In this document: positions 7,681 to 64,000 of the stretch, in pieces
How positions within the stretch are numbered: position 1 is the stretch's first letter
Layout of the letters: each line of letters begins with the position of its first letter
NCBI GenBank assembly: GCA_002400365.1
Contig: DHFK01000087.1
Span: 9,635 to 73,634, forward strand
From: Anaerolineales bacterium UBA4826
Lineage (GTDB): Bacteria; Chloroflexota; Anaerolineae; UBA4142
Direction of reading: 5' to 3'
Length of the DNA: 64,000 bases
Program-made: the position numbers and the translations under genes
Notes under the pieces: generated by a model
What the model was told of the DNA's origin: nothing
The model's input: only the letters and a program-made list of their open reading frames with translations
Database searches by the model: none

Positions 7681-9129
7681 TCAGCGCACCGGCAGATGAA
7701 TGGTGAACACGCTGCCGTGCCCCGGTTCGCTCTTCACCGTGATCGCGCCGCCGTGCGCGGCGACGATTTCTTTGGCAATGGCTAGCCCCAAGCCGGTGCC
7801 GCCGGCGACGCGCGCTTTATCGCCGCGATAAAACCGCGCAAAGAGGCGCGGCAAGTCGTCCGCGGGAATGCCTTCGCCCGTGTCGGCGACGGCGATCCGA
7901 ATCCATCGCTGCGTCGGGGTCTTGCCTGCCGACCACCGCGCGAGCAAAGTGCTTTTGCCAGCGCTTTCTAGCGCTTCGGCTTTGGCGGTCACGGTGACTG
8001 TTCCGCCCGGGCGATTGTACTTGATCGCGTTTTCGACCAGGTTGGTCACGACTTGTTCCAATTGGCCGGCGTCGCCGGTGATTGGAGGGAGGGCGTCAAC
8101 CATGGCGACGATCGTCGCAGCCGGGATGTTCGCGCGCGCGCGGCAACGCTCGATCCAGCGCGGCAAGAGTTCGCCCAAGTCAACCCGGTCCTGCGCGAGC
8201 GCGATTTGCCCGGATTCCAGCCGCGCGAGCGTGAGCAAATTGCCAACCAAGCGCGCCATCCGCCCGGCTTCGTCGAAGATCGTTTGCGCGGCGCGGCGCG
8301 CCCCCGCCAGGTCATAGGTCGTCCCGTCGAGAATCGCCTGCGAAAAGCCCTGGATCGAAGTGAGCGGCGTTTTCAATTCGTGCGAGACGTTCGCGACGAA
8401 ATCTTTTTCCATCTGCCGCGCGCGCTGCATCTGCTCCGCCATCGCGTTGAAACTCGCGCCCAGCCGTCCGATTTCATCGCGCCCCCGGGCGTCGACGCGA
8501 TGAGCGTACTCTCCGCGCGCCAGCGCTTCGGTTGCCTGCGTCAAGCGCGTGATCGGTCGGGCAATCGAGCGCGCCAGCCAGAGCGCGGCGAGCAGCGAGA
8601 CCACTAACGTGATCGCGCCGGCGAGCAAGAGACTCGCGCCGATGTCGTCGAGCACGGCGAAGAAGGGCTGTTCTTTTGCCGCCAAACCCACGTACACCTG
8701 CTGCCCGCCGACCTGGCCTGCCAGCACGGCGACGTACAGCAGCGTGCGATTGAGGTTGCGTTGTGGATGAACGCCCCAGATGAATCCGCGGGGAGTGCCC
8801 GGCTTGTTCAGTGGCGTGAAAGAGATGTTGCGATTGGTCAAGCCATTTGCCGCGTCCGCCAGCACCAGCCCTTTGTCGGTCACGATGATGAGATCGCCGA
8901 CGCCGGTAGTTTGCTGCTGGAGCCGCGTCATCACCTCGCGCGGCGGAACGTTGTTGAGGAGCAGCGCGCGCGCCTGGAACGCCAACGGCACGACGGCATC
9001 CCCCAGGCGCGCGAGTTGGACATCGCGCTGGTACGCGCGCAGAATCACTGCCAGACTCACCGCGACGATCGCGAGCGTGAGCAGGATGACAAAGACGAAG
9101 GTTAGGGCAAGGCGCGTTCTAAGAGACAT
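7681..9129 (-). CDS. sensor histidine kinase (2 TM, HAMP, HisKA, HATPase_c)
   Basis: 482 aa. H-box SHELKTPLTSIQGF. N/G boxes (NAIKYN, DTGEGI, GGTGLGLAIAK). Two hydrophobic segments flank a periplasmic region of about 150 aa. Confidence 0.92.
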   Translation of the reverse strand: MSLRTRLALTFVFVILLTLAIVAVSLAVILRAYQRDVQLARLGDAVVPLAFQARALLLNNVPPREVMTRLQQQTTGVGDLIIVTDKGLVLADAANGLTNRNISFTPLNKPGTPRGFIWGVHPQRNLNRTLLYVAVLAGQVGGQQVYVGLAAKEQPFFAVLDDIGASLLLAGAITLVVSLLAALWLARSIARPITRLTQATEALARGEYAHRVDARGRDEIGRLGASFNAMAEQMQRARQMEKDFVANVSHELKTPLTSIQGFSQAILDGTTYDLAGARRAAQTIFDEAGRMARLVGNLLTLARLESGQIALAQDRVDLGELLPRWIERCRARANIPAATIVAMVDALPPITGDAGQLEQVVTNLVENAIKYNRPGGTVTVTAKAEALESAGKSTLLARWSAGKTPTQRWIRIAVADTGEGIPADDLPRLFARFYRGDKARVAGGTGLGLAIAKEIVAAHGGAITVKSEPGHGSVFTIHLPVR

Positions 9130-9134
9130 CCGAC

Positions 9135-9215
9135 TTTCGATTGCCGATCCTTCGGCAAGCGCAGGACAGGTTTTTCGATTTTCGATTGGGGCGCGCCAGA
9201 AATCGGCAATCGAAA
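9135..9215. repeat. TTTCGAT-unit repeat/hairpin between the kinase and regulator genes
   Basis: TTTCGATTGCCGAT (9135-9148) is the perfect reverse complement of ATCGGCAATCGAAA (9202-9215). An internal TTTTCGATTTTCGATT tandem lies at 9172-9187. Confidence 0.8.
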
Positions 9216-9231
9216 ATCGAACATCGAGAAT

Positions 9232-9900
9232 TCATCCGCCGACAAGTTTGTAGCCGACACCGCTCACCGTTTCAATTTGCGTCCGCGCGCCGGCGAGTTT
9301 CTTGCGCAAATGCGCGACGTGAACGTCCACCGTGCGCGTCTCGCCTGGGAAATCAAAGCCCCAGGCGATTTCCAGCAAGCGTTCGCGCGTCAAGACGATG
9401 CCGGGGTTTTGCATCAGCACCGCGAGCAAATCGAATTCTTTGGCGCGGAGCGCCACTGGCTTGCCCGCCGCCGTGACTTCGCGCCGATCCAGATCCAGAA
9501 CCACATCGCCGACGCTGAGGCGCTGGGTCTTGGGCGCGGGATTGACGCGGCGGAAAATCGCCTTGACGCGCGCGACGAGTTCGCGTGGGTTGAACGGCTT
9601 GGTCAGGTAATCGTCCGCGCCGAGTTCCAGTCCGACGATCTTGTCCACGTCCTGATCGCGCGCGGTCAGCATGATGATCGGCGCGTCGCTTTCCTGGCGG
9701 ATGCGGCGGCACACTTCCCAGCCGTCCAGCCCCGGCAGCATCAAATCGAGGATGACCGCCGCCGGCTTGAGCGCGCGAAAGCGGTCGAGCGCAGTCTTGC
9801 CGTCATACGCGGTTTCAATTTGATAGCCCTCTTTTTCCAGGTACAGGCGTTCCAGTTCGATGATGTTCTTTTCGTCGTCCACCAGGAGCAGCGTGGTCAT
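9232..9900 (-). CDS. OmpR/PhoB-family DNA-binding response regulator
   Basis: 222 aa. Receiver domain (LLVDDE, DLMLPGLDG, KP) plus a winged-helix trans_reg_C domain (LTRKEFDLL-type, VGYKL). Confidence 0.93.
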   Translation of the reverse strand: MTTLLLVDDEKNIIELERLYLEKEGYQIETAYDGKTALDRFRALKPAAVILDLMLPGLDGWEVCRRIRQESDAPIIMLTARDQDVDKIVGLELGADDYLTKPFNPRELVARVKAIFRRVNPAPKTQRLSVGDVVLDLDRREVTAAGKPVALRAKEFDLLAVLMQNPGIVLTRERLLEIAWGFDFPGETRTVDVHVAHLRKKLAGARTQIETVSGVGYKLVGG

Positions 9901-41423: not shown

Positions 41424-41434
41424 ACTTGTCCTAC
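41407..41434. terminator. 13-bp perfect palindrome overlapping both convergent stop codons
   Basis: GTAGGACAAGTTT GT AAACTTGTCCTAC. It contains the folK TAA and the complement of the deacetylase TAG. Confidence 0.5.
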
Positions 41435-42393
41435 TTGCCGCTCGCCATCCAGTACTTGAGCCAGTACGCGAATTCGTCCACGGAATAACTGCCGCGCACG
41501 CGGATGCGCCGCAGTTCGAAAATGTCCTCCGTGGCTTGGCGCGCCCCCGCGATCTCCGTTACCGCGGCGAGATACCCGGTCGAACGCAACACCTCCAGCG
41601 TGCGCGCGTCGTACTTGCCCGAGGGATAGCAGAACGACGTGACCGGCGTGCCGATGCGCGCCTCGATCATCGCCTTCGCGCCGGCGATTTCGCTATTCTG
41701 AACCGCCAGCGATCTGCCGCGCAGTTCGATGTGATTCACCGTGTGCGCCCCGATCTCCATCCCCTCGATCGCCATTTCTTCCGCCTGATCCCAGGTCATA
41801 TAGCCGGGACGCTTTTCGTCAATCAATTGCGTGATGAGAAAGAACGTCGCGGGGAATTTATAGTTCTTGAGTATCGGAAACGCGTTTTCGAAATTGTCGG
41901 CATAGCCATCGTCAAAGGTCAGGACGATCGGCTTGGACGGCAACGGCTTGCCGTTCAACAAATGCTCGGTAAGATCAGATAGGCGGATCGGGTGATAGCC
42001 CTCGATGGCGAGGTATTCCATCTGCGCGTCAAAGTTGGCGGGGGTCACGGTGAGATCGAGGCGGTACTTGTCGGCATCGGGCGGGGGAATGCCGAGATAG
42101 TGATACATCAAAATCGGCACGCGCGCGACGCGCAAGTTGGGGTTGCGCGTGGGTGTGAGTGTGCGCGTGGGGGTCGGAGCAAAAGTGGGGGTCTTGGTCG
42201 GCGCGGCGGTTGGCGTCGGCTGAGGCGTCGAGGTTGGCGCGGGACTGGGCGTGACAACCTCTGTTGGCACTAGCGCGCTGACGCCGGCAACCTGGACGAC
42301 GGTACCTGGCGGTGGACCTGGAACATCCGCGAAACCGGCGAAGATCAGGGTCGCCACGATGGGCGCGGCGACGAGAAATCGCTTCAAGTTCAT
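41431..42393 (-). CDS. polysaccharide deacetylase (NodB/CE4) family protein, secreted
   Basis: TFDDGY, HTVNH and P/T-rich linker after a signal/anchor segment. ATG at 42393 is preferred over the one at 42414. Confidence 0.85.
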   Translation of the reverse strand: MNLKRFLVAAPIVATLIFAGFADVPGPPPGTVVQVAGVSALVPTEVVTPSPAPTSTPQPTPTAAPTKTPTFAPTPTRTLTPTRNPNLRVARVPILMYHYLGIPPPDADKYRLDLTVTPANFDAQMEYLAIEGYHPIRLSDLTEHLLNGKPLPSKPIVLTFDDGYADNFENAFPILKNYKFPATFFLITQLIDEKRPGYMTWDQAEEMAIEGMEIGAHTVNHIELRGRSLAVQNSEIAGAKAMIEARIGTPVTSFCYPSGKYDARTLEVLRSTGYLAAVTEIAGARQATEDIFELRRIRVRGSYSVDEFAYWLKYWMASGK

Positions 42394-42438
42394 TGCGCCC
42401 AGAGTATAACACAAACCCGCGAAAAAGCAAGAGCGCGT

Positions 42439-44467: not shown

Positions 44468-45529
44468 CTACTTGAACAACTCTGGGTGAATGATCTTCGC
44501 CGCGGCTTCCAAGCCATCGGCGATGCGCGGGCCAGGCCGGCTGACCAGGTTATCGTCAATCGGAAAGATTCGGTTGTTCTTGACGGCGTTGATCGCCGAC
44601 CAACCGCCGCGCGCCTTGACTGATTCGGGCGTCGTGCCGTACGCGGCATCGCTCAGGATGATGAGATCAGGATTCGCGGCGATGATCGCTTCCGCGTTCA
44701 CTTGGGCGTACGGCGTTTTGGCATTGGCGGTTGCGTTGACGCCTCCCGCGAGCGTGATGATGTCGTTGATGAACGAGCCGGGACCTGGCGCGTACGGCTT
44801 GGCGGGATCGGTCGCGTCGAGTTCCCAGTAGACCCGCGGCTTGGCCTGCGCGTTCGCCACCTTCGCTTTGACCGCGTCCACTTTTTGCTTCATCGCGTCG
44901 GCGATCGTTTTCGCTTTCGCATCCGTCCCGGTTGCCTTGCCAACCAGCGCGATGTCCGCGGTCACGCTATCGAACGTCGTGTTCATCGAGCCGACGACGA
45001 GCACGGTTAGTTTGAGATCGGCAAGTTTCTTGATGTCGTCAGGACTCTGGATGCCCGCCGCGAGAACCAGATCGGGCTTGAGCGCGACGATTTGCTCAAG
45101 GTTCAGCGGATACGTTTTGATCTTGGGCAAATCCTTCGTCTCGGCGGGATAATCGGAAAACGAATCCACGGCGACGACGCGGCGGCCCAGTCCGAGCGCG
45201 AACGCGATTTCGGTTGTGCTCGGCGCGAGCGAGATGATGCGTTGCGGTAGCGCAGAGATCGTCACGCTTCGATTCGCGCCGTCGGTGACGGTGATCGGCG
45301 CGGGTGTGGCTGTCGCAGGCACCGGCGTCGGCGCGACCGTTGGCGGGATTTTAGTCGGCGCAGCAGTTGGCGGGACGGGCGTCGCGGTTGGCGCGAGCGT
45401 CGCCGGAATTCGAGTCGGCGCAGCGGTGGGAGGAACGGGCGTCGCGGTTGGCGCGGGCGCGCATGCAACAACCGCGACCAGCATTATCGTCAGGGCAATC
45501 AGCCCGGCGGAAAGTTTTCGAGCGTTCAT
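44468..45529 (-). CDS. btuF: periplasmic-binding-protein (BtuF/TroA-like) lipoprotein of the ABC importer
   Basis: Lipobox VVAC, a P/T/A-rich repeated linker, then a class III PBP domain (RIISLAPSTTEI..). AGGAGA sits 6 nt upstream of the ATG at 45529. Confidence 0.82.
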   Translation of the reverse strand: MNARKLSAGLIALTIMLVAVVACAPAPTATPVPPTAAPTRIPATLAPTATPVPPTAAPTKIPPTVAPTPVPATATPAPITVTDGANRSVTISALPQRIISLAPSTTEIAFALGLGRRVVAVDSFSDYPAETKDLPKIKTYPLNLEQIVALKPDLVLAAGIQSPDDIKKLADLKLTVLVVGSMNTTFDSVTADIALVGKATGTDAKAKTIADAMKQKVDAVKAKVANAQAKPRVYWELDATDPAKPYAPGPGSFINDIITLAGGVNATANAKTPYAQVNAEAIIAANPDLIILSDAAYGTTPESVKARGGWSAINAVKNNRIFPIDDNLVSRPGPRIADGLEAAAKIIHPELFK

Positions 45530-45561
45530 TGGATTCTCCTGTTGTGAATTTAATGCACGAT

Positions 45562-45600
45562 GGAAAAACAAAAATCCCCTTGCCTTTTCGACAAGGGGAT
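45562..45600 (-). terminator. riboswitch expression-platform terminator
   Basis: Minus strand: ATCCCCTTG-TCGAAAAGG-CAAGGGGAT followed by TTTTGTTTTT. It ends 33 nt before the ATG. Confidence 0.85.
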
Positions 45601-53145: not shown

Positions 53146-55940
53146 TCGCTATTCGCCATCGCGTCCCAATTCTGCCCGACCGCGACATCCACCTTCAACT
53201 TTGATTCCAGCGCGTACGCGTTCTCCATGATCTCGCGCACGAGCGGCGCAACAACGCGTACCTCGTCGTCGGGACATTCGAGCACGAGTTCGTCATGCAC
53301 CTGGAGCGTCATCCGACTTTTCAAATTGCGCGCGTGCAGTTCGCGCTGCAACCGAATCATCGCCAGTTTAATAATGTCCGCCGCGCTGCCCTGAATCGGA
53401 TGGTTGATCGCTTCGCGCTCCGCCGCGTTCTTCAGCGCGGGGTTGACGCTGCCCTTGCCGCGCAGTTCGGGAAAATAACGCCGCCGCCCCAGGAGCGTCT
53501 GCACGTAGCCATGCTCGCGCGCCTCGCGCTTGGTGCTTTCGATGTACGCCTTGACCCGCGCGAACTGGGTAAAGTAATTGTCAATCAGTTGCCGCGCCTC
53601 GGCTTGCGACAACTCGGTGCGCGCGGCGACACCGTAATCGGTGATGCCGTAGGCGATGCCAAAGTTGATCGTCTTGCCCAACTGCCGCATGGACGCCGTG
53701 ACCTGCTCACGCGGGACGTTGAACAAGCGCGCGGCGGTCGCCGCGTGAATGTCCTCCCCGCGCGCGAACGCGTCGAGCAAACCCGGGTCGTGCGTGATGT
53801 GCGCGAGGATGCGCAGTTCGACCTGGGAATAATCCGCGCTGATGAGTTTGCTGCCGCGCGGCGCGATGAACGCGCGGCGCACCTGCCGCCCCAGGTCGGT
53901 GCGGATCGGAATGTTCTGCAAATTGGGGTTCGACGATGAGACGCGTCCTGTGATCGCGCCGGTCTGGTTGTAATCGGTGTGCACCCGCCCGGTGCGCGGC
54001 AACACCAGCGCGGGCAGCGCGTCCACATACGTCCCTTTGAGTTTCGACAACTCGCGGTGCTCGAGAATCAACGGGATGATCGGATGCGCGGCGCGCAGTG
54101 ACTCCAACACCTCGGCGGCGGTCGAAATCTGACCGGTTTTCGTCTTGGGTAACCCAGTCGTCGGCAGTTTCAGCCGCTTGTACAGCGCATCGCCCAATTG
54201 CTGCGGCGACGCGATGTTGATCGGCATTCCAACGTGCGTGGTGATTTGCTTTTCCAACTCTTGCAGCCGCGCGGCAAGTTCGTCCGACATCCGCGCCAAA
54301 AAGTCGAGATCGAGCAACACGCCGGCGCGTTCCATCTCCAGCAGCACCGGCACGAGCGGCATCTCGACCTCGTTGAACAATTTGTCGAGTCCGTGTTCCG
54401 CCAGTTGCGGCTGGTAGAGTTCGACGAGGCGATAAGTGTAATCGGCGTCCGCGCACGCGTAACGCGACACTTTTGCAGGATCCACCTCCGCCATCGAAAT
54501 CTGGTTCTTGCCCTTGCCGATCAGCGCCTCGATCTCCGTCATCTCGACGCCGAACTTTTGAAAGACCAAACTCTTCAAGCCGATGGATTGTCTCCCCGGC
54601 TCGATCAAATGCGCGGCGATCATCGAGTCGAACGCAAGTCCGCGCAGTTCGACGCCGGCTTCGGCAAGCACCGTCGCGTCATATTTCGCGTTGTGCGCGT
54701 ACTTGATAATGCGCGCATCTTCGAAGATCGGTTTCAGTTTGGCGAGAACGTGATCGCGCTTAAAAGATGAAGGGTGAAAGATGAAAGATGAAGGTACTGT
54801 ATCAAAGGCAAGTTGCCCTTGTTTCCCAACTTCATCTTTCAACTTTCTGCTTTCATCCTTCACGGGAACATAATACGCCTCGCCATTCCCCACGCCGATC
54901 GCCAACCCCACCAACTCCGCGCGCATCGCGTCGGTGTCGGTGGTCTCGACGTCAACGACAAACGCCTTTGCCGATTGCAGACGCGCGACCAATTGGTCGA
55001 GCGCGGCTTCCGTATCAACCGTGTGATAATTCTCGGCGATGGCTTGCGGCTTGGCGGCAACCGAGTCCGGCGGCGCCGGCTTGACGCCGGGCAGTCGTTC
55101 GATCAAACTGCGAAAGCCGAGTTCACGAAAGAGCGCGACGACGCGTTCGCGGTCGTACTCTTCGACGCGGCACGCGGCGAGATCGAGTTTCACCGGCGCG
55201 TCGGTCACGATCGTGACGAGTTGCTTGCCTTGCTCTGCCTGCGCTTGTCCCGCGCGCAATTTTTCTTGCCAGCGTTTTTCGATTTCCTCGAGGTGCGCGT
55301 AGATGTCTTCGACGCTGCCGTACGTCTGCACGAGTTTCGTCGCGGTCTTTTCGCCGATACCGGGGACGCCGGGGATGTTGTCGGACACATCGCCTTTGAG
55401 CGCCTTGAAATCAATCAGTTGGCGCGGCTCGAGTTGGTAGCGCTGCTTGACCGCCGCTTCGTCGTACACAACGAATCCGCCCCCCGACTGCGGCGAGAAC
55501 ATCAGCACGCGCACGTGCGGCCCGATCAGTTGCAGCGTGTCAGTGTCGCCGGTGACGATGAGCGTTTCGATGCCGCGTTCGCTTGCCTGCCGCGCGAGCG
55601 TGCCGAGCAGATCGTCCGCTTCGTACCCTTCCAGCCCGAACGCCGGAATGCCCAACGTCTCCACGACCTGGCGCGAGCGCTGCAACTGCGTCAACAAATC
55701 ATCGCCGAGTTCAGGGCGCGTGGCTTTGTATTCCGCGTACAGCGCGTCGCGAAAACTCTTGCCCACGTCGAACGCGGCGGCGATGTACTCGGGCTTTTCG
55801 TCGCTCAGGACTTTGAGAACCGTCGAGGTAAAGCCGTACGTCGCGTTGGTCGGTTCGCCGCTCGGGCTGGTGAGGTTGGTTTGGATCGCGTGGTACGCGC
55901 GGTGGATCAGTGCGTGCGAATCAAGGAGAACAAGTTTCAT
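53118..55940 (-). CDS. polA: DNA polymerase I
   Basis: 940 aa. 5-prime nuclease domain, 3-prime-5-prime exo-like domain (DVETT, KYAHNAKYD) and polymerase motifs A (DYSQVELR), B (RRAAKTINFGIAYG-like QLGKTINFGIAYG) and C (QVHDEL). Confidence 0.97.
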   Translation of the reverse strand: MKLVLLDSHALIHRAYHAIQTNLTSPSGEPTNATYGFTSTVLKVLSDEKPEYIAAAFDVGKSFRDALYAEYKATRPELGDDLLTQLQRSRQVVETLGIPAFGLEGYEADDLLGTLARQASERGIETLIVTGDTDTLQLIGPHVRVLMFSPQSGGGFVVYDEAAVKQRYQLEPRQLIDFKALKGDVSDNIPGVPGIGEKTATKLVQTYGSVEDIYAHLEEIEKRWQEKLRAGQAQAEQGKQLVTIVTDAPVKLDLAACRVEEYDRERVVALFRELGFRSLIERLPGVKPAPPDSVAAKPQAIAENYHTVDTEAALDQLVARLQSAKAFVVDVETTDTDAMRAELVGLAIGVGNGEAYYVPVKDESRKLKDEVGKQGQLAFDTVPSSFIFHPSSFKRDHVLAKLKPIFEDARIIKYAHNAKYDATVLAEAGVELRGLAFDSMIAAHLIEPGRQSIGLKSLVFQKFGVEMTEIEALIGKGKNQISMAEVDPAKVSRYACADADYTYRLVELYQPQLAEHGLDKLFNEVEMPLVPVLLEMERAGVLLDLDFLARMSDELAARLQELEKQITTHVGMPINIASPQQLGDALYKRLKLPTTGLPKTKTGQISTAAEVLESLRAAHPIIPLILEHRELSKLKGTYVDALPALVLPRTGRVHTDYNQTGAITGRVSSSNPNLQNIPIRTDLGRQVRRAFIAPRGSKLISADYSQVELRILAHITHDPGLLDAFARGEDIHAATAARLFNVPREQVTASMRQLGKTINFGIAYGITDYGVAARTELSQAEARQLIDNYFTQFARVKAYIESTKREAREHGYVQTLLGRRRYFPELRGKGSVNPALKNAAEREAINHPIQGSAADIIKLAMIRLQRELHARNLKSRMTLQVHDELVLECPDDEVRVVAPLVREIMENAYALESKLKVDVAVGQNWDAMANSEWRIANGEG
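53124..53158. repeat. five tandem TTCGCCA-type heptamers at the polA end and the next gene's start
   Basis: TTCGCCA TTTGCGA TTCGCCA TTCGCTA TTCGCCA. On the minus strand it encodes the polA tail MANSEWRIANGEG and contains the ATG at 53145. Confidence 0.85.
54762..54863. repeat. GAAAGAT-unit hairpin inserted in frame in polA
   Basis: AAAAGATGAAGGGTGAAAGATGAAAGATGAAGG (54762-54794) versus CCAACTTCATCTTTCAACTTTCTGCTTTCATCCTTCAC (54826-54863). 17 of 18 bases pair in the core. On the minus strand it reads VKDESRKLKDEVGKQGQLAFDTVPSSFIFHPSSFK. Confidence 0.88.
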
Positions 55941-55949
55941 AAGTCACTG

Positions 55950-56012
55950 CGCCAATCGCCCAATGAACCAATGAGCCAAACGAGCCATTCGTCAAATTGC
56001 TTTGGCTCATTG
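55950..56012. repeat. CCAATGAG-unit repeat/hairpin upstream of polA
   Basis: CCAATCG CCCAATGAA CCAATGAG CCAAACGAG units. CAATGAGCCAAA (55969-55980) is the perfect complement of TTTGGCTCATTG (56001-56012). Confidence 0.85.
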
Positions 56013-56017
56013 CGCAT

Positions 56018-56404
56018 TTATTTATCCAGTCGTTCGAGGTTGCTGACGCCGCTGGTCTGCAATTCCTGATAGCGCGCGTCGGCGTTCCTGGCGCGCCACT
56101 CGACGACGACACGCCCGTCGCCGTTCTTGTACGCGGCGAGCGCCTTGTGCCTCAAGACGCGCTCAAACGCGTTCAGCAGTTCTTGGCTCGGCGCTTGCAT
56201 TTTGAGACGCAAATAATCCTTCGGCTCCCATTCCATCGTAAAAGCGACGTCGCCCCATTCGCCCCGACATTCAAACGGCGCGGTCTCTTTGACGCAACTG
56301 AACCACATGCGGGTCAAGCCCGCTTTCCAAAATGTCAGCCGCAGAGCGTTCTCAATGGCAGAGCGCGAGGGAGGAAAATCGGCGAAAAACCATTGGGCAC
56401 TCAT
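56018..56404 (-). CDS. hypothetical protein
   Basis: 128-aa ORF with no recognisable motif and plausible codon usage. Confidence 0.45.
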   Translation of the reverse strand: MSAQWFFADFPPSRSAIENALRLTFWKAGLTRMWFSCVKETAPFECRGEWGDVAFTMEWEPKDYLRLKMQAPSQELLNAFERVLRHKALAAYKNGDGRVVVEWRARNADARYQELQTSGVSNLERLDK

Positions 56405-56841
56405 TCTGTCTCTCTCCTTTTGAAAACAAAATAATGGCGCGCAGCCGGCGCTCTAGGTCGCGTTGATTTTAGCACAAGAGCGGCATAAAAACAACCTTGC
56501 GAAAAAATGCCGATCGAGATCGAAGCGAATCGCAGGCTCAGTGGGCGGCCCGATGCGCGTGCCGCGGCGTTGGCAGCCCGCGCGGACGCGTTCGTCAGCA
56601 AGGGCAACCCACCCAAAGGATGGTCGGCAATTTTGCGCGCCGTTTGCGTGGTAGGCGAAAAGCAACTTGCCAATGAGATTGACTTGGGCTATTATGGCGA
56701 GCAAGAGTCTGTGTCGCCCCCCTTGGCGACCCATTGGGTTGTCATTTGCGGACGCGAAACAAAACGGCAAGTGCCCCAAGGAATAGGCAAGCGCCAATGG
56801 ACTCGAGAGGTACTGTGAAACCTACTTGTGAAGGAGGCACC

Positions 56842-57330
56842 ATGTCCAAACAGATTTCACTCGACCGATTCACCCAGCCGTTGTTCGAGTTGCTCGACGA
56901 AACATTCGAGAACGTGCACGGCGCGTACCTCGACAAAGGCAACTCGCTCTTTGAAACGCTCGCGCCGGTGACCGCCGAACAAGCGTCGCGCGCCGCGTCC
57001 AATCAGGTGGCGACGATTGCCGCTCAGGTCAAGCACGTGCGTTTCTATCTGTGCGTGTTGCAGGACTATACTCTGAACAAGGACGTCGGGGGCGTGGACT
57101 GGGGGGAGATCTGGCGCACGACCAGGCAAGTCACGCCCGAAGAATGGGAAATCATCAAGCGCGAACTCAGAGAAGCCTATCAGAGCGTTCTCGCCACGCT
57201 GAAAAACCTGGACGGCTGGGAAGGCGAACACAGTATCGAGGGCGCTATGGGGATCGTCGCGCACACGGCGTATCACCTAGGCGAAATTCGCCAAGCCCTG
57301 GGCGTCATCAACGCGGCTCGACAAGGATGA
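56842..57330 (+). CDS. DinB/YfiT-like (DinB_2) four-helix-bundle metalloprotein
   Basis: The C-terminal HTAYHLGEIRQ motif is typical of the DinB superfamily. AAGGAGG sits 5 nt upstream of the ATG at 56842. The longer ORF-track start is unlikely. Confidence 0.78.
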   Translation: MSKQISLDRFTQPLFELLDETFENVHGAYLDKGNSLFETLAPVTAEQASRAASNQVATIAAQVKHVRFYLCVLQDYTLNKDVGGVDWGEIWRTTRQVTPEEWEIIKRELREAYQSVLATLKNLDGWEGEHSIEGAMGIVAHTAYHLGEIRQALGVINAARQG

Positions 57331-57781
57331 AGCATTTCTCGAAACGAAATCCTCCGATCGCGCCACGCGACCTGCAGATTCAGGCTTGCTCACAGATTGG
57401 CGCAAACCGAACCAGCCATCGAGTTCCCAGACGGCTTTGATTTCGTCAAGCGAAAACAGGGTAAGATCGGGATGACCTGGGACGTGCCGCGCGCTTTGAC
57501 CAAGCCAGCCGCATTGGCAGACAAGCGCATGGCTCGCCGCCACCGCGCGTTTGTCTGCCGCCGAGTCGGAGGGTCTGGTGGAGAAAGATGTTCTGCCCCT
57601 TTTCCTACGCGGCAAGGGGAGGGGTGCGCCCCTTCCCTGGGAGGGAAGGGGGTGGGGGTTAGGTCGGACTGCCAGTCAACTGACTCAAGCCCTCGGTGGA
57701 ATGTCAAGAGCCGCGAGGCAGGGGGCAAGAACAAATAAACCTAACCTGCGCCGAGCAGCAGATAGCACTTGGCCTGCTTGC

Positions 57782-60598
57782 TCATTCGATTTTGTACGCG
57801 CTCGGATCCGGCTTGACCGCGCGCGGCATCCACAGGGGTCGGCGCAGATTGGCCGGACCGGGTGCAGGGCGCGTCAGCGCGAGCCATTCCTTGTAGATTT
57901 CGTGGGCGCGGTTCGTGTCCACAAACACATCCCCATAGCGGTCGCCGGACTGCGCTTTGTCGACGCGCACCTTTTGATGCCAGCAGTGCATTCCGCTGAT
58001 CGGGTCGGGATGGACGGGCATAGTCAGATTTTGATGCACGCCGACCTCGTTCCACCACACGCGCAGAGAATCGGGGTCGTTGCTCGCAAAGGGTTTTGCG
58101 CCTTCGAGTTGCTTCATCGTCCATTTGCCGCCGGCGTGTTCCAGTTTCACCGTCGAAGCAAGCCAGCCCGAACCGCTCTGCTTGTCCAACCTCCAGCGTC
58201 CCATGTGATGCGAACACGCAACCACACGCGGATGAATGCTTTCCGTCACCCACACCTTGTCCACGAAATACCCGATGTCGGTCGTCACGCGCACCAGGTC
58301 GCCGGTCTTGACGCCGAGTTGGCGCGCGTCATCGGTGTGTATCCACACGGGGTTCTTGTGCGAAATCTCTGCCAGCCATTTCGAGTTCGCGCTGCGTGTG
58401 TGAATCTGGGTCGGCAGGCGAAAAGTCGAAAGCAAGACGAATTCATTCTTTGCCCGATCCACATTGTCGCGCCGCACGTGACTGGGAATGTATGCCGGCA
58501 AAGCGTACTCCCCCCATTTCCAATCCTGCATCGTACGCGAATAGATTTCAAGTTTGCGCGAGGGCGTCGGAAAGCCGACGTACTTTTCGCCATCAATTTC
58601 GACGCCGATTGCCGCGCCGCCTTTTTTCACCGCATGGGTCGTCGCATCTACGCTCGTTCCTTCAAGTTCCCTCTCCGTTAGTTTCTTCTCGTGGGTCTGG
58701 TAGACCAGGTCTTTGACGGTGAACGCGCCGTACTTGCGCATGAACTCGAGTGGGGTCAGGTTTTCTTGCTGCGCCGCTTCGGGTAAGCCGGGGACACTGT
58801 TCTCAAAAATCCAGCGATAGTAATCCGTGACCGTCATCTTTTCGCCGGGGCGAAAAGGCGATTCAAAATACTTGCGGATGCCCAGCGACCCATCGGGATC
58901 GATGCGCCACGACAACTCGATCCAGAACTCGTCTTCTTCCCAGACCTGACCTGGGTTGGCTTCGTACGTGTACTTGACCGGCTTGCCGATTTTCTCCAGC
59001 GCCACGCGGCGCACCGGTTGCCGGAACGCGATCCATTGCGCGGCGTGCGTTTCATAACTCACCAGGTCGTGCCGCTCCGGTCCCAGTCCCATCGGCAAGA
59101 CGTAGTCGGCGAACCACGCCGTCTCATTCCACGTGGGCGTGAGCGCGGCGTGCAAGCCGACCAGGTTTTCATCGGACAGCACTTCCATCCATGTCGCACC
59201 ATCGGGATTCGTCCACACCGGATTATAGACCCGCGTGAAATAGACGGCGAGTTTGCCGCGTCCCTCCTTCAAGAAATGCGGCAGGAGAAAACTCATTTCA
59301 AAGTACGCCAGCGGATACTCTTTCGGCATCAAGAGTTCGTTCCACACTTTTTGCGGCGGCGGCTTGAGCGGCGGCGTGGGCACGAATTTGTTGAACCCGT
59401 TGGGCGACGTGCCACCGGGCGTTCCCACCGCGCCGACGAGCACGCTCAAAAATTCCAGGCACCGCGCCACCTGCCAGCCGCCGAGATTCGCGGTCGCGGC
59501 GCTGCGCCACACGTGCGTCGCAAACGCCGACCCGGCGCGTCCGATCTCGCGCGCGATTTCGACAATCGTCTGCGCCGGAATTCCCGATTCCTTCTCCGCA
59601 AATTCCGGCGTGAACGAAGCGTAATTCTTTTTGAGACGCTCGATAAAGTCGTCGAAGGAGTAGTTAGCAATTGGAGATTGGAGATTTGGCTCATTGGGCA
59701 ATTGGCTCATTGGCTCATTGATCATGAACTCTTCCCAATTCGTCCAGCGGCGCACGAAATCGCGATTGAACAAATTCTCGTTCAAGATCACGCGCGCCAT
59801 GGCGAGCAGAACCGCGGCTTCCGAACCGGGCCACGTCGGCAGCCAATAGTCTGCCAGCGAAGCCGTGTTTGACAAGCGCGTGTCCAGCACCGCGATTTTC
59901 GCGCCGCGCATTTTCGCTTCGATAATGCGTTGCGCGTGCGGATTGAAATAGTGCCCCGTTTCGAGGTGCGACGAGATGAGCAGAATAAAGCGCGCGTTCG
60001 CATGATCGGGCGAGGGGCGATCAAAGCCATGCCACAAGGAATAGCCGAGGCGCGCCGCGGAGGAGCAAACGTTCGTGTGCGAATTGTGTCCGTCAATTCC
60101 CCACGCTTGCAAAACGCGATCCATGTAACCATCGTGCCCGGGACGACCGACGTGATACATGATTTCGTTGCGCCGTCCTTCCGTCAGCGCTTTGCGAATC
60201 CGTCCGCCAATATCGTCGAGCACTTGGGCCCAGGTCACACGTTCCCATTTGCCTTCGCCGCGTTTTCCGGCGCGTTTAAGCGGAAACAAAATCCGTTCGG
60301 GATCAGTCACCTGGCTGTACGTCGCCGGACCTTTCGCGCAGTTGCGTCCGCGCGAGCCGGGATGTTCGGGGTTGCCTTCGAACTTGCGCACCTGGAGCGT
60401 CTTTTTGTCAATGTACGCAAGCAAGCCACAACCGGCTTCGCAGTTAAAGCAGACGGTCGGCACGAGCATGTAATGCTTCTCGACGCGGCGGGGCCAAGCG
60501 GTGGGCTCGTACTCCATCCAATCGTCCCACTGCTCAACCGGCGGATACGCGGCGAGTTCTGGTTTCGTCGTCACAAAATCAAGCGCAACACGCGTCAT
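57782..60598 (-). CDS. molybdopterin (bis-MGD) oxidoreductase catalytic subunit, no Tat signal
   Basis: 938 aa. N-terminal 4Fe-4S motif CFNCEAGCG...C(AKG). Candidate Mo-ligand Cys in HTNVCSSAARLG. Typical MopB domain order. No RR-x-F-L-K motif in the first 40 aa. Confidence 0.9.
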   Translation of the reverse strand: MTRVALDFVTTKPELAAYPPVEQWDDWMEYEPTAWPRRVEKHYMLVPTVCFNCEAGCGLLAYIDKKTLQVRKFEGNPEHPGSRGRNCAKGPATYSQVTDPERILFPLKRAGKRGEGKWERVTWAQVLDDIGGRIRKALTEGRRNEIMYHVGRPGHDGYMDRVLQAWGIDGHNSHTNVCSSAARLGYSLWHGFDRPSPDHANARFILLISSHLETGHYFNPHAQRIIEAKMRGAKIAVLDTRLSNTASLADYWLPTWPGSEAAVLLAMARVILNENLFNRDFVRRWTNWEEFMINEPMSQLPNEPNLQSPIANYSFDDFIERLKKNYASFTPEFAEKESGIPAQTIVEIAREIGRAGSAFATHVWRSAATANLGGWQVARCLEFLSVLVGAVGTPGGTSPNGFNKFVPTPPLKPPPQKVWNELLMPKEYPLAYFEMSFLLPHFLKEGRGKLAVYFTRVYNPVWTNPDGATWMEVLSDENLVGLHAALTPTWNETAWFADYVLPMGLGPERHDLVSYETHAAQWIAFRQPVRRVALEKIGKPVKYTYEANPGQVWEEDEFWIELSWRIDPDGSLGIRKYFESPFRPGEKMTVTDYYRWIFENSVPGLPEAAQQENLTPLEFMRKYGAFTVKDLVYQTHEKKLTERELEGTSVDATTHAVKKGGAAIGVEIDGEKYVGFPTPSRKLEIYSRTMQDWKWGEYALPAYIPSHVRRDNVDRAKNEFVLLSTFRLPTQIHTRSANSKWLAEISHKNPVWIHTDDARQLGVKTGDLVRVTTDIGYFVDKVWVTESIHPRVVACSHHMGRWRLDKQSGSGWLASTVKLEHAGGKWTMKQLEGAKPFASNDPDSLRVWWNEVGVHQNLTMPVHPDPISGMHCWHQKVRVDKAQSGDRYGDVFVDTNRAHEIYKEWLALTRPAPGPANLRRPLWMPRAVKPDPSAYKIE
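59669..59720. repeat. ATTGGAG / ATTGGCTC simple-repeat patch inside the Mo-enzyme CDS
   Basis: AATTGGAGATTGGAGATTTGGCTCATTGGGCAATTGGCTCATTGGCTCATTG. It combines units found at 2439-2494 and 55950-56012. On the minus strand it reads INEPMSQLPNEPNLQSPIAN. Confidence 0.8.
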
Positions 60599-60685
60599 AA
60601 TTCACTCCCAGGAAAACAACTGAACCGCGAAGAAAACATAGAAAACCCTTGCGGTCTTCGTCTTGGCGGTGAGACTTGGCTTTAC

Positions 60686-62266
60686 TCAACTATTCGGCAC
60701 CCTCTGCCCGGCTTGCACCCAGGCGTGCAGGACCGCATACAATCCGGCGAGCGCGCAGGCGCCCCCGATCGCGCTGACGAATGTCAGCGCGGTGGCAAGC
60801 GCGATGACCGCCAACGCCAATCCAACTATCTCTGCCGCGATGCCGCCCCAGAAAAACGCACCGAAATATCCGTGGGTCATTAGACGATGTCCGTAGCGCG
60901 CGTTCGTCGTCGCGGGTGGAATCGCGAAATCGGCAAGGATTTGTGTGACGATGAGCGCGGCGAGACTGACGACGAATGCCCAGACGAGCGGAGTCGTCGC
61001 CGCAACCGCTAACCCGCCGATCATCGCCGCGATCAACAACGCGCCGCCGCCAGCCGCCCCGGCGTGGAGGAATAGATTGAGCGCAAGCGGCGGCGACTGC
61101 CACAAATCGCGCCCTTCCGCTTGGGAAAAGAGAAACGCCGAATAGATCGCGGAAAAGATCGCGAGAAACGCGGCGGGAAACGTCAACGCGTTTTGCGTTT
61201 GCTTGAGCCAATCCATTGGCAGCGCAATCGTCGCGCGCACGAATGTTTCTTGCGCCACGCTCGCGAGAAACCATAATCCGCCCAGCGCCGTGAATCCCAT
61301 CAAGATGAACGCGCCGCGCGCGAGCCACGAACGCAGCTGCGGGCGCAATACGATTTTCAAGAATCGGCGCGGCTGTTTCAAATCCCAGACGAGGAAAAAG
61401 GTCGTGATGCCGATGAACACAAGCGATAGGCATGCGGCAAGCGCGGCAAACGCGTTGGGGATCGGCAATCCAAATCCCAGGAACAACGCCGGGATAAAAA
61501 ACACGCCCGCGCCGATGGATTTCGTCCACAGGTACGCCGCAACTTTCCAGCCCCAGGGCATTTCGTGCGGCACGTCGTACACGGTTTGCGTCAGCGCGCC
61601 CGCAAACGTGCCCCCGCGCTGAATCGGTCCAGCGTGCCGGCCATTCGGCGCATATGCCGATTCGCCTACGTCTGCCCACATCCACGTTTCGGAACGCGCC
61701 GTCGCGAGCGGATTGAGCGATGCCGCTTCGCCGTCTATGTAGAATACTTTGGGATTCGTGCCTTGCTCCGGTTTGCGCACCGAAACCTGTTCGCGCGCGA
61801 GGAGCCGCGAGACCTGAGAACTGGGATCGTCCACGTCGCCGACGATGATCGCCCGTTCGGGGCAAACGATCACGCACGCCGGCTCCAAACCGCGCTCAAG
61901 CCGATGCGCGCAGAAATGGCATTTCGCCGCGGTGTGCGTTTCCGGGTCAACGTAGATCGCGTCGTAGGGACACGCTTGCAGGCACGCTTTGCACGCGATG
62001 CACTGCTCGCCGTTGAATTCGACGATGCCATCCGGTCGCCGATACATCGCGCCGGTCGGACAGATGCGGACGCACGGCGGATTATCGCATTGATTGCAGC
62101 GCGTGACCTGAAAGTACCGGCGTGTATGCGGAAACTTGCCTTTCTCGACGTACTTGACCCACGTGCGAAACACGCCGAGCGGCACCTGGTTCTCTTCCTT
62201 GCACGCGACACTGCACGCGTGACAGCCGATGCATTTGCGATTGTCAATGATCTTGGCGTATTTCAT
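60686..62266 (-). CDS. fused four-cluster ferredoxin (DmsB/PsrB-like) and NrfD/PsrC-like membrane anchor
   Basis: 526 aa. Four Cys groups (CIGCHACSVAC, CNQCDNPPC, CIACKACLQAC, CHFC...CVIVC) are followed by about 8 TM segments. There is no signal peptide. Confidence 0.88.
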   Translation of the reverse strand: MKYAKIIDNRKCIGCHACSVACKEENQVPLGVFRTWVKYVEKGKFPHTRRYFQVTRCNQCDNPPCVRICPTGAMYRRPDGIVEFNGEQCIACKACLQACPYDAIYVDPETHTAAKCHFCAHRLERGLEPACVIVCPERAIIVGDVDDPSSQVSRLLAREQVSVRKPEQGTNPKVFYIDGEAASLNPLATARSETWMWADVGESAYAPNGRHAGPIQRGGTFAGALTQTVYDVPHEMPWGWKVAAYLWTKSIGAGVFFIPALFLGFGLPIPNAFAALAACLSLVFIGITTFFLVWDLKQPRRFLKIVLRPQLRSWLARGAFILMGFTALGGLWFLASVAQETFVRATIALPMDWLKQTQNALTFPAAFLAIFSAIYSAFLFSQAEGRDLWQSPPLALNLFLHAGAAGGGALLIAAMIGGLAVAATTPLVWAFVVSLAALIVTQILADFAIPPATTNARYGHRLMTHGYFGAFFWGGIAAEIVGLALAVIALATALTFVSAIGGACALAGLYAVLHAWVQAGQRVPNS

Positions 62267-62995
62267 CTAGTCTCCGCCGGAAATTCGTGGGTTGATGATT
62301 TGATCCAAGCGCGAACGATCAAACACTTCCCCAGCGGAATGGCGCAGGGGAATCGTGAGCAAGCCCACGCCGAACAACAGCGACATGAACAGCGCCACCA
62401 CGCCAATGACGATTTCACCGCTGAGCGGTCCAATCGCGCCACGCGCGATGAATTCCTCCCAGGTCGTAACCGCAGTTGGCTGGGTGATATTCTTCAAAAT
62501 CCAACTCGCGATCAGCGTGAGAAAAATCCAACTGTAGTTGCGGCGAAAGCGCCGTCCCAGGGCTTCCCAGAGCGAGATCGGAAACTGCGGATGGCGCAAA
62601 CTGTCTGCCAGTCTTTCTGCCCACTGGGGCGAGGGCTCGTGGGGCGGTACCAACATCGCCGCAAAATAGTTGCACTCCATCAAACGCGCGCGGTACGCCC
62701 ACAACTCATAATAACGATCGCGCCGCGCTTCGATAAACAGAAAGAGGGCGATCAAGAACAGGTTGATGATGATGACGCCGTGATGATGATCCGACGCGGA
62801 GAGCGAGAAGGAAATCGCCGCGCCGGCAGTGATGATCGCCCAGTTGGTTGTGGCGTCGAGCCGCTGGCGCCAGACGTTCGAGCGTTGAATCTCCGCCCGA
62901 TAAAAGTGGACAAACGCCGTGTTGAACTCGCTCGTTTTAAGGTCGAGGTCGCGAAATTTCCAAATCGGTTCGCGTCCCGTTTGAGATTGGGTCAT
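62267..62995 (-). CDS. DUF2270-like integral membrane protein
   Basis: 242 aa. The N-terminal FVHFYRAEIQRSNVWRQRLDATTNWAI block matches what I recall of DUF2270. Four TM segments. Its stop abuts the start of the FeS-NrfD gene. Confidence 0.6.
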   Translation of the reverse strand: MTQSQTGREPIWKFRDLDLKTSEFNTAFVHFYRAEIQRSNVWRQRLDATTNWAIITAGAAISFSLSASDHHHGVIIINLFLIALFLFIEARRDRYYELWAYRARLMECNYFAAMLVPPHEPSPQWAERLADSLRHPQFPISLWEALGRRFRRNYSWIFLTLIASWILKNITQPTAVTTWEEFIARGAIGPLSGEIVIGVVALFMSLLFGVGLLTIPLRHSAGEVFDRSRLDQIINPRISGGD

Positions 62996-64000
62996 GAGGC
63001 AGATTGATCGAGCAGCATCACCGCGTGGGTCAGATCGTCCACGGTCATGCCCGGTGATTGAATGGCGAGGTTGCGATAGACTTCCTCGGCGCGCGCCTTG
63101 ACCGCATTCATATCAAGCGCCGTGCCGCGCAACGCCAGTTCGAGCGCGCCCGGCGCGAATTTCGGCAGCATCGTGAAATCGCCGGAGAGCGTGACGTCGT
63201 CAATGCGTCCCGCGCGCGTGCGCGCGGTTACCCGAATCAAACCGCCGGGCGCTTTGTGCGCCGCTTCGATCACGCGCACGTCTTCGTGAATCTTGACGCC
63301 GACCTGGCGCAGTCCGCCTTTTTGATAGAGCCATTCATCGGTCACCGCTTGCGCGTCCAATTGCGCCGCAATCGCCAGTTCCTTTTCGGTCGGTTCGCCG
63401 GGAACGATCTTGCGTCCCAGCACCGCCTCGACTTGCTCGAGATAGATTTTGACGACGGCGTCACGATCGGGCGTGCGTCCCAGGTGGCGCGTCATCGTCG
63501 TCATGTATTCGTTGAGGGATTGGAAAATCTTGTCGCGCATTTTCTCGGACGACACCTTCAACACTTGCGCCATCAACTCAACATTGAAATCGAACATCAA
63601 TGAGCCGACGACGACTTCGGCGTCGCCCATCTGCGCCGCGCCGGTGCCGCCGATCTTTTTGCCTTGCACGTGAATATCGTTGATCGGGCGATAGGTCGCC
63701 GGAATGCCAAACGCCCGATACGTTTCGACGAGCGGCTTGACGTACAGCGCAAATCGTTCGCCGAGATCGGCAGGCAAAACGTTGCGGTGGAAAATCCATT
63801 GTGTAAAGACCTGGTTTTGGTCGAGGTACACCGCGCCGCCGCCCACCTCGCGCCGATAGATCGGCAAGCCATGTGCGCGGCAGTACTCCACGTCCACTTC
63901 TTTTTCCAGTTCCTGATGAAAACCGATGCACACGTACGGTTCGGTCGGTCCGACGAGGATGATCGTGTCCGGCGAATCCGCATCGAGCGCGTATGCGACG
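62992..64000 (-). CDS. lplA: lipoate--protein ligase (LplA family), 5-prime end beyond the window
   Basis: The frame stays open to the window edge (..AYALDADSPDTIILVGPTEPYVCIGFHQ..). GGGAVYLD and the KKIGGTGAAQ lysine motif are present. ATGA overlap with the DUF2270 gene. Confidence 0.85.
   Translation of the reverse strand, partial: VAYALDADSPDTIILVGPTEPYVCIGFHQELEKEVDVEYCRAHGLPIYRREVGGGAVYLDQNQVFTQWIFHRNVLPADLGERFALYVKPLVETYRAFGIPATYRPINDIHVQGKKIGGTGAAQMGDAEVVVGSLMFDFNVELMAQVLKVSSEKMRDKIFQSLNEYMTTMTRHLGRTPDRDAVVKIYLEQVEAVLGRKIVPGEPTEKELAIAAQLDAQAVTDEWLYQKGGLRQVGVKIHEDVRVIEAAHKAPGGLIRVTARTRAGRIDDVTLSGDFTMLPKFAPGALELALRGTALDMNAVKARAEEVYRNLAIQSPGMTVDDLTHAVMLLDQSAS

Follow-up and report, generated by a model that had tools for sequence, protein, structure and literature searches.

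A predicted cytoplasm-facing molybdoenzyme, probably sulfite-oxidizing, at the end of an sHdr-LbpA cluster in an Anaerolineales genome

What is the role of a molybdoenzyme that carries no export signal, is anchored by a fused iron-sulfur (FeS)-NrfD subunit, and is encoded next to a lipoate-protein ligase and a DUF2270 membrane protein? The question is raised by four minus-strand genes that extend from position 57782 to the end of a 64,000-nt stretch of contig DHFK01000087.1 from Anaerolineales bacterium UBA4826; the whole of this stretch is hereafter called the window. Here we report that the four genes are probably the downstream end of a sulfur-oxidation supercluster, in which the molybdoenzyme would oxidize the sulfite made by sHdr to sulfate and reduce menaquinone. 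The strongest argument comes from gene context across genomes. The two-gene module for the molybdoenzyme adjoins three unrelated systems that generate sulfite in the cytoplasm, namely sHdr in the lineage of the window, rDsr in Chlorobium, and persulfide dioxygenase (PDO) in Rhodococcus jostii RHA1, and this company argues for sulfite oxidation with electrons delivered to quinone. The enzyme resembles the polysulfide-reductase-like complex 3 (PSRLC3) of green sulfur bacteria.

Gene layout and topology of the molybdoenzyme

The window contains the following features of the gene set:

57782..60598, minus strand: gene for the MopB catalytic subunit (938 aa), lacking a twin-arginine translocation (Tat) signal, PSRLC3-type and SoeA-like
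60065..60067, minus strand: codon of Cys178, the candidate Mo ligand in HTNVCSS, from alignment with PsrA and ArrA
60599..60685, minus strand: 87-nt intergenic gap separating the FeS-NrfD gene from that for MopB; it holds a hairpin with a T-run (60641-60659) and, ahead of the ATG of MopB, a GGGAG ribosome-binding site
60686..62266, minus strand: gene for the FeS-NrfD fusion subunit (526 aa), PsrB/SoeB-like over about residues 1-200 and NrfD/PsrC-like over residues 242-522
62267..62995, minus strand: gene for a DUF2270 (PF10028) membrane protein (242 aa; Pfam E = 1.2e-60), a candidate anion channel
62992..64000, minus strand: 3' part of lplA, the C-terminal 335 of 360 codons, for the sLpl(AB)-type ligase of the adjoining sHdr-LbpA cluster
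57744..57763, minus strand: hairpin with a T-rich run behind it, 19 nt past the MopB stop, a possible end of the transcription unit by a pattern match that is not above chance

An initial annotation, made from the letters and open reading frames (ORFs) of the window, had described this gene order with ATGA or abutting junctions, the 87-nt gap, and a partial lplA, all of which we reproduced from the ORFs and the sequence. The lplA and DUF2270 genes overlap in tcATGAcc, the TAG stop of DUF2270 abuts the ATG of the FeS-NrfD gene, and the lplA frame stays open up to base 63999, so that the gene is truly partial here; in the source contig it encodes 360 aa. Promoter and terminator patterns, including both hairpins, are no more frequent than in shuffled sequence, and an Rfam search of positions 55500-64000 matched no RNA family.

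Pfam agrees with each of the earlier domain calls (MopB, FeS-NrfD fusion, DUF2270, and lplA). MopB combines Molybdop_Fe4S4, Molybdopterin, and Molydop_binding domains and has the cysteines of the FS0 cluster at C50, C53, C57, and C87. Residues 51-144 of the fusion subunit match Fer4_11 and residues 234-511 match NrfD, and the 16 cysteines of its FeS domain form four CxxCxxC...C groups, that is, four [4Fe-4S] motifs. The cysteine first singled out as a Mo ligand, Cys178 of HTNVCSS, is supported by its alignment with the Mo-ligand Cys173 of Thermus PsrA and the matching active-site cysteine of ArrA, and it is invariant among 68 family members.

Neither subunit appears to be exported. The N-terminus of MopB, MTRVALDFVTTKPELAAYPP, has no twin-arginine motif and no hydrophobic stretch, and no hydrophobic 19-mer occurs along the whole protein. 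The fusion subunit starts straight with its first cysteine cluster, MKYAKIIDNRKCIGC, and likewise has no twin-arginine motif and no hydrophobic N-terminus. In an AlphaFold model of the fusion, the NrfD domain has eight transmembrane helices with a predicted local distance difference test score above 90 and superposes on PsrC with a TM-score of 0.75; PsrB shares 51% identity with the FeS domain. As there are eight helices, the membrane domain begins and ends on the side where the FeS domain lies. The NrfD loops on that side carry a mean of 9.1 lysines plus arginines vs 0.4 on the opposite side, a bias seen in 64/64 family members. Because signal peptides are absent and positive charges mark the inner side of a membrane protein, we place MopB and the FeS domain in the cytoplasm. 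The evidence from N-termini, hydropathy, and the positive-inside rule supports the earlier prediction of a complex without Tat or Sec signals that faces the cytoplasm and is anchored by an NrfD-type domain, and the analogy drawn then with the topology of SoeABC is apt, as the same cytoplasm-facing arrangement has been proposed for SoeC.

The best solved relatives by sequence are PsrA (2vpw, 6e-45) and ArrA (6cz7) for MopB and PsrB (5.5e-57) for the FeS domain. In a Foldseek search of the PDB, ArrA and PsrA ranked first, with 19-21% identity (PsrA ~21%), and no other relatives were named. The best NCBIfam scores of MopB were with the DmsA/YnfE and PhsA models, far under the family cut-offs (193.7 vs 694 bits for PhsA), and the same scan returned no SoeA match.

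The upstream cluster and the spread of the two-gene family

The genes beyond the window were read from a stretch of about 15 kb of the source contig (locus L100), which begins inside shdrB1; the position of shdrC1 lies further upstream. The order on one strand is shdrB1, shdrA, shdrH, shdrB3, etfB, etfA, emo, orf167, lbpA, lbpA, slpl, DUF2270, FeS-NrfD, and MopB, where slpl is the lplA of the window. The upstream genes are as follows:

shdrB1: incomplete, as the stretch read begins within it
shdrA: HdrA-like flavoprotein, 351 aa
shdrH: 257-aa gene, called by position
shdrB3: HdrC+HdrB-like fusion, 423 aa
etfB and etfA: between shdrB3 and emo
emo: 699 aa, N-terminal hydrophobic helices followed by Fer4 and CCG domains
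lbpA, two copies: GCV_H-type proteins with the ESGKW lysine

Type II shdr clusters are defined by shdrC1B1AHB3 and etfAB in one syntenic cluster, have Chloroflexota among their main hosts, and encode an sHdr-LbpA system that oxidizes sulfane sulfur to cytoplasmic sulfite (PMC11094781). The genes upstream of the window match shdrC1B1AHB3-etfAB-emo, lbpA, and slpl gene for gene over the stretch read, in which no TusA or DsrE sulfur transferase gene was found, the stretch beginning inside shdrB1. The proteins of the window also occur on contigs of the metagenome-assembled genome (MAG) GCA_002412505.1, whose nearest named relatives are Chloroflexi and Anaerolineae MAGs, and in JGI metagenomes. The ORF of 164-176 aa between emo and the first lbpA (orf167; L100 7373-7876) is found in 5/6 close relatives, among them L097, L099, L181, and L182, as well as in L026, and has a weak MarR/winged-helix match; the contig of the sixth relative begins downstream of its position.

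This context explains lplA. Its product has LplA-B_cat and Lip_prot_lig_C domains and scores below the cut-off for canonical LplA (TIGR00545, 125 vs 280 bits), and the gene comes directly after the two lbpA genes. Since two lbpA genes and a type II sHdr cluster lie immediately upstream, lplA is the LbpA-specific ligase of the sHdr system and no partner of the molybdoenzyme, to which the initial annotation had tied it. The same annotation had speculated about lipoate-dependent sulfur metabolism and suggested a search upstream for lipoyl-carrier genes. That link is real, and the carriers are the two LbpA proteins encoded just past the end of the window.

The sHdr linkage is a stable trait of this Chloroflexi-type clade, since sHdr-II and LbpA genes lie directly upstream of the FeS-NrfD and MopB genes in 6/6 closest relatives (MopB 77-100% identical). 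The precise set of genes varies. Of these six, four have LplA next to the module, some of them with it downstream of MopB; three carry DUF2270, often as a DUF2179 fusion; and a NarJ/TorD-like chaperone gene follows in four. In L182, the FeS-NrfD and MopB genes are separated by a Rieske protein gene and a nucleotidyltransferase/HEPN gene (8373-9854). The lbpA, DUF2270, and FeS-NrfD genes of another relative, on a long ENA contig (L098 947-4107), are each split into two ORFs, which look like assembly frameshifts and not gene fission.

Beyond this clade, the family consists of the FeS-NrfD and MopB genes. Homologues of MopB number in the thousands across many phyla, at 55-84% identity (55-69% for those in other phyla). 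The pair of an FeS-NrfD fusion and a Tat-less MopB occurs in at least 600 GTDB species (one genome per species) from Acidobacteriota, Chloroflexota, Binatia, Rokubacteria/Methylomirabilota, Bacteroidota, and Planctomycetota, and also in Chlorobium, Thermomicrobium roseum, R. jostii RHA1, and the haloarchaeal Natrinema; among the matches listed in the species scan, the fused family was the sole type. Homologues of the fusion subunit number 7,811 at E <= 1e-10, the best 120 of which are all full-length fusions of ~500-560 aa. A combination that the initial annotation could assign to no characterized enzyme is instead a widespread two-gene family whose Chlorobium members match PSRLC3.

To describe its surroundings, ORFs up to 10 kb from the module were clustered without prior labels at loci of 80 GTDB species, and the biggest families were then annotated. 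The fused gene is immediately upstream of MopB in 70/80 of these family loci, the rest being mostly short contigs with little sequence upstream. The recurrent neighbours are PDO-rhodanese fusions (23/80), SulP sulfate permeases (20/80), single rhodaneses (13-14/80), SQR-like flavoproteins (9/80), MoaE (8/80), MoaD (7/80), TauE/SafE (7/80), and YeeE-like carriers (6/80). In 16 of the 80, a SulP or TauE gene stands immediately beside the module on the same strand. The gene order in Chlorobium sp. N1 is module-TauE-DsrE2-Rhd-TusA-DsrN-DsrA-DsrB-DsrL. On plasmid pRHL3 of R. jostii RHA1, the order is DsrE-TusA-module amid PDO-like hydrolases, a rhodanese, a thioredoxin, and ArsR-type regulators, and in T. 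roseum the module is preceded by a gene for a CsoR/CstR-type regulator. DUF2270, LplA, and LbpA were found within 10 kb of the module in 0/80 family loci, and sHdr genes in 1/80. The co-location of lplA and DUF2270 with the molybdoenzyme, put forward as a linked set, is thus lacking from the family at large and kept in one Chloroflexi-type subclade only, an outcome that goes part of the way to the refutation the initial annotation had set for itself.

A tblastn search of plasmids for soeABC returned members of the family plus two more distant loci. One of these, in Azoarcus KH32C, was considered as a canonical soeABC and rejected, as it has a Tat signal and belongs to a different family. The other, on a Sulfurovum mangrovi plasmid (L008 4084-9169), is the nearest unfused Tat-less relative found; its FeS, NrfD, and MopB subunits (37-40% identity) are encoded by three genes arranged B-C-A, and a TorD-like chaperone gene comes after the MopB gene, whose reading frame is interrupted by a frameshift in the sequence record. 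A gene for an Mrp/NBP35-family ATPase overlaps the MopB stop in R. jostii RHA1 pRHL3 (L010 12811-13980) and Natrinema halophilum (L011 12897-14057), and this ATPase may be a dedicated Fe-S cluster carrier for the molybdoenzyme.

Proposed function, its rivals, and DUF2270

In the route that we propose, type II sHdr and lipoylated LbpA would convert protein-bound sulfane sulfur to cytoplasmic sulfite, LbpA being lipoylated by the ligase that the window lplA encodes. The two-gene molybdoenzyme would act as a cytoplasm-facing, membrane-anchored sulfite:quinone oxidoreductase of the PSRLC3/Soe-like kind. Sulfite would be oxidized to sulfate at a Mo-bis(pyranopterin guanine dinucleotide) (Mo-bisPGD) centre with Cys178 as the predicted ligand, and electrons would pass from FS0 along the four [4Fe-4S] clusters in the FeS part of the fusion to a quinone, presumably menaquinone, in the eight-helix NrfD domain. 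DUF2270 would play an accessory part in the membrane and might be an oligomeric anion channel through which sulfate or sulfite leaves the cell.

Several observations weigh against sulfite oxidation. No sulfur genes lie within 10 kb of the module in 42/80 family loci, and the closest solved structures, PsrA and ArrA, are those of reductases, at ~20% identity. Our literature search gave no purification or knockout of a member of the fused family, and the proposed substrate is read from gene context. The likeness to SoeABC is one of architecture and orientation. SoeABC consists of three polypeptides encoded in the order A-B-C, whereas in the window enzyme B and C are fused and encoded before A. 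Finally, a KEGG-based survey placed SoeC only in Proteobacteria, Clostridia, and Aquificae (PMC8076601), and the Chloroflexi, Actinomycetota, and Chlorobi hosts of the fused family are absent from it; given this restriction of SoeC, the fused family is probably an orthologous group separate from SoeABC.

The alternative that survives best keeps the oxidative direction and changes the substrate: the enzyme would oxidize thiosulfate, or a carrier-bound persulfide delivered by TusA/DsrE, and not free sulfite. The module comes straight after DsrE and TusA genes in R. jostii RHA1 and adjoins such genes in Chlorobium, and the PDO-rhodanese fusions of the 23 family loci speak for it as well, since such fusions (CstB-type) can give thiosulfate as well as sulfite. 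Sulfite, however, is the product that sHdr, rDsr, and PDO share, the adjacent carriers are of the TauE/SafE and SulP families, and the analogous SoeABC uses sulfite; we therefore consider another substrate unlikely.

Still less likely is catalysis in the Psr/Phs/Ttr direction, by a reductase that faces the cytoplasm, takes electrons from quinol, and has polysulfide, thiosulfate, tetrathionate, or another oxyanion as acceptor. Its appeal lies in the closest solved relatives, PsrABC and ArrAB, and in the best NCBIfam scores, DmsA/YnfE and PhsA. Those scores are far under their cut-offs, however, and identity to PsrA is ~21%. Reductases of the Psr/Phs/Ttr type are exported by Tat and the window enzyme is not, and the gene context is oxidative, comprising sHdr, rDsr with DsrL, SQR, and PDO.

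The four genes could also form a novel self-contained system in which the lipoate ligase and DUF2270 serve the molybdoenzyme, a view implicit in the initial annotation that is very improbable and largely refuted by context. The tight packing of the genes and the occurrence of an LplA-FeSNrfD-MopB-DUF2270 set in at least five metagenome loci would fit it, but the two lbpA genes and the sHdr cluster immediately upstream account for the ligase, LplA and DUF2270 are absent from all 80 family loci, and among close relatives lplA shifts to the opposite flank of the Mo genes, and three of six lack DUF2270.

Sulfite oxidation thus being the probable function, the locus bears on a gap in the pathway. 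The sHdr-LbpA route ends in cytoplasmic sulfite, whose fate in type II organisms is not spelled out in the literature found; here and in five relatives, sulfite disposal is apparently encoded in the same cluster. A metagenome study in mBio detected no SoeABC in its samples (PMC12345210). If marker-gene surveys miss the fused family, direct sulfite oxidation may be underestimated. The function can be tested in the cultured carriers T. roseum, R. jostii RHA1, Flavilitoribacter nigricans, and Lutibacter aestuarii. The type II sHdr-LbpA cluster and the PSRLC3-type enzyme are already known, and the fresh lead is the possible role of DUF2270.

The DUF2270 protein of the window has about four hydrophobic segments, and 13 arginines are invariant in the alignment. 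With ~1,500 homologues the family is small, and it turns up in diverse settings: one copy, 79% identical, is close to an Hdr/Mvh hydrogenase cluster, and other copies are in unrelated places. In a scan centred on DUF2270, neighbours were clustered without prior labels at 80 metagenome loci (52-60% identity). The MopB family is the commonest neighbour (14/80), followed by the FeS-NrfD gene (9/80), an FmdE-like gene (9/80), LplA (6/80), and a DASS anion symporter (6/80). The order LplA-FeSNrfD-MopB-(NarJ)-DUF2270/DUF2179-FmdE recurs. The initial annotation had suggested a survey of DUF2270 neighbourhoods; its outcome is divided, with the molybdoenzyme as the commonest neighbour of DUF2270 and DUF2270 as no general partner of the molybdoenzyme, to judge from the family loci. 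The FmdE-like gene (PF02663) directly follows DUF2270/DUF2179 in L119, L122, L125, L126, L128, L130, L133, L150, and L165; FmdE is otherwise found in operons of molybdenum or tungsten formylmethanofuran dehydrogenases. ABC permeases beside some DUF2270 genes were considered as sulfate carriers and set aside, as they scored as sugar-type GlcTU/UgpAE.

In L182 (4846-6576), where MopB is 82% identical, a SulP gene (Sulfate_transp and STAS domains) lies between lbpA and the FeS-NrfD gene, in the slot that lplA and DUF2270 hold in the window. Proteins of PF10028 have been described in a preprint as ThsF, the membrane effectors of type V Thoeris, and modelled as ring-shaped oligomers that resemble a channel and have pockets of positive charge (bioRxiv 10.64898/2025.12.03.692087). 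No TIR-domain gene stands beside the DUF2270 gene of the window, and no TIR family is among the recurrent neighbours at the 80 metagenome loci. From the channel-like ThsF models, the 13 invariant arginines, the missing TIR neighbour, the molybdoenzyme as commonest neighbour, and the SulP or TauE genes in its slot elsewhere, we tentatively propose that this branch of DUF2270 is an anion channel or accessory membrane subunit that releases sulfate or sulfite, working with the PSRLC3-type enzyme. This would be a cheap hypothesis for a family without a known metabolic role. If it is true, a family known only as a phage-defence effector gains its first housekeeping function, and the Chloroflexi cluster encodes a full route from sulfane sulfur to exported sulfate. 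That DUF2270 is instead a ThsF-type defence gene lying here by chance is hardly credible, for although PF10028 was recently shown to be a type V Thoeris effector family, no TIR gene lies alongside, DUF2270 overlaps or abuts the LplA and FeS-NrfD genes, and its commonest neighbours in the DUF2270 loci are the molybdoenzyme, the FmdE-like gene, and LplA, not TIR.

Elsewhere in the window, two minus-strand genes encode proteins with a long Pro/Thr/Ala-rich linker after an N-terminal hydrophobic segment: a putative substrate-binding protein next to ABC-transporter genes (44468-45571) and a protein that resembles a polysaccharide deacetylase (41431-42414).

Comparison with known systems

The published type II sHdr-LbpA cluster, which the upstream genes match, is not described in the literature found as ending in a sulfite-oxidizing molybdoenzyme or DUF2270. 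The DUF2270 protein shares with ThsF of type V Thoeris its Pfam family, PF10028, and the character of a small membrane protein. Unlike ThsF, it has no TIR partner, and its gene is translationally coupled to metabolic genes, which points to a non-defence branch.

For each of the three modules of the enzyme, the best solved relative is PsrABC of Thermus thermophilus (2vpw), which has the same cofactor motifs and Mo-ligand cysteine. Psr, in contrast, is exported by Tat, faces the periplasm, and consists of separate subunits, and the catalytic subunits are ~21% identical. Of the traits of PsrABC/PhsABC reductases sought in MopB, the RR motif is absent and the PhsA score is under the family cut-off.

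SoeABC of Allochromatium vinosum and Aquifex aeolicus is a cytoplasm-facing sulfite:quinone oxidoreductase (PMC8076601). The window enzyme resembles it in its Tat-less MopB with FS0 and Mo-bisPGD, the four-cluster FeS unit, the heme-less NrfD anchor, and the inverted orientation, and SoeABC likewise acts after a cytoplasmic sulfite-producing pathway (PMC8076601; Justice 2014).

PSRLC3 was reportedly named by Frigaard and Bryant in 2008, and Frigaard, Bryant and Dahl are said to have described it as consisting of a PsrA-like protein in the cytoplasm and a PsrBC fusion. The window enzyme is likewise a two-gene unit of a Tat-less PsrA-like catalytic subunit and a PsrB/PsrC-like fusion. Publications on green sulfur bacteria speak of '2 genes encoding PSRLC3', a complex 'inferred to be sulfite oxidase', and of 'an alternative sulfite-oxidizing system'. 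The module is present in Chlorobium sp. N1, a Chlorobiaceae MAG, and Chlorobium sp. L442-64, with MopB proteins 62-63% identical to that of the window, and the Chlorobium-type loci place it beside TauE, DsrE2, Rhd, TusA, and dsrNABL. We infer from architecture, not from locus tags, that these loci are the published PSRLC3. The window differs in its Chloroflexi-type host, in the position of the module within a type II sHdr-LbpA cluster and not beside dsr, and in having DUF2270 in the place of the Chlorobium TauE. As its fused B and C subunits depart from the three-subunit A-B-C arrangement, we do not file the enzyme as a member of SoeABC; on the comparisons made here, it is best regarded as a PSRLC3-type enzyme that would work like SoeABC.

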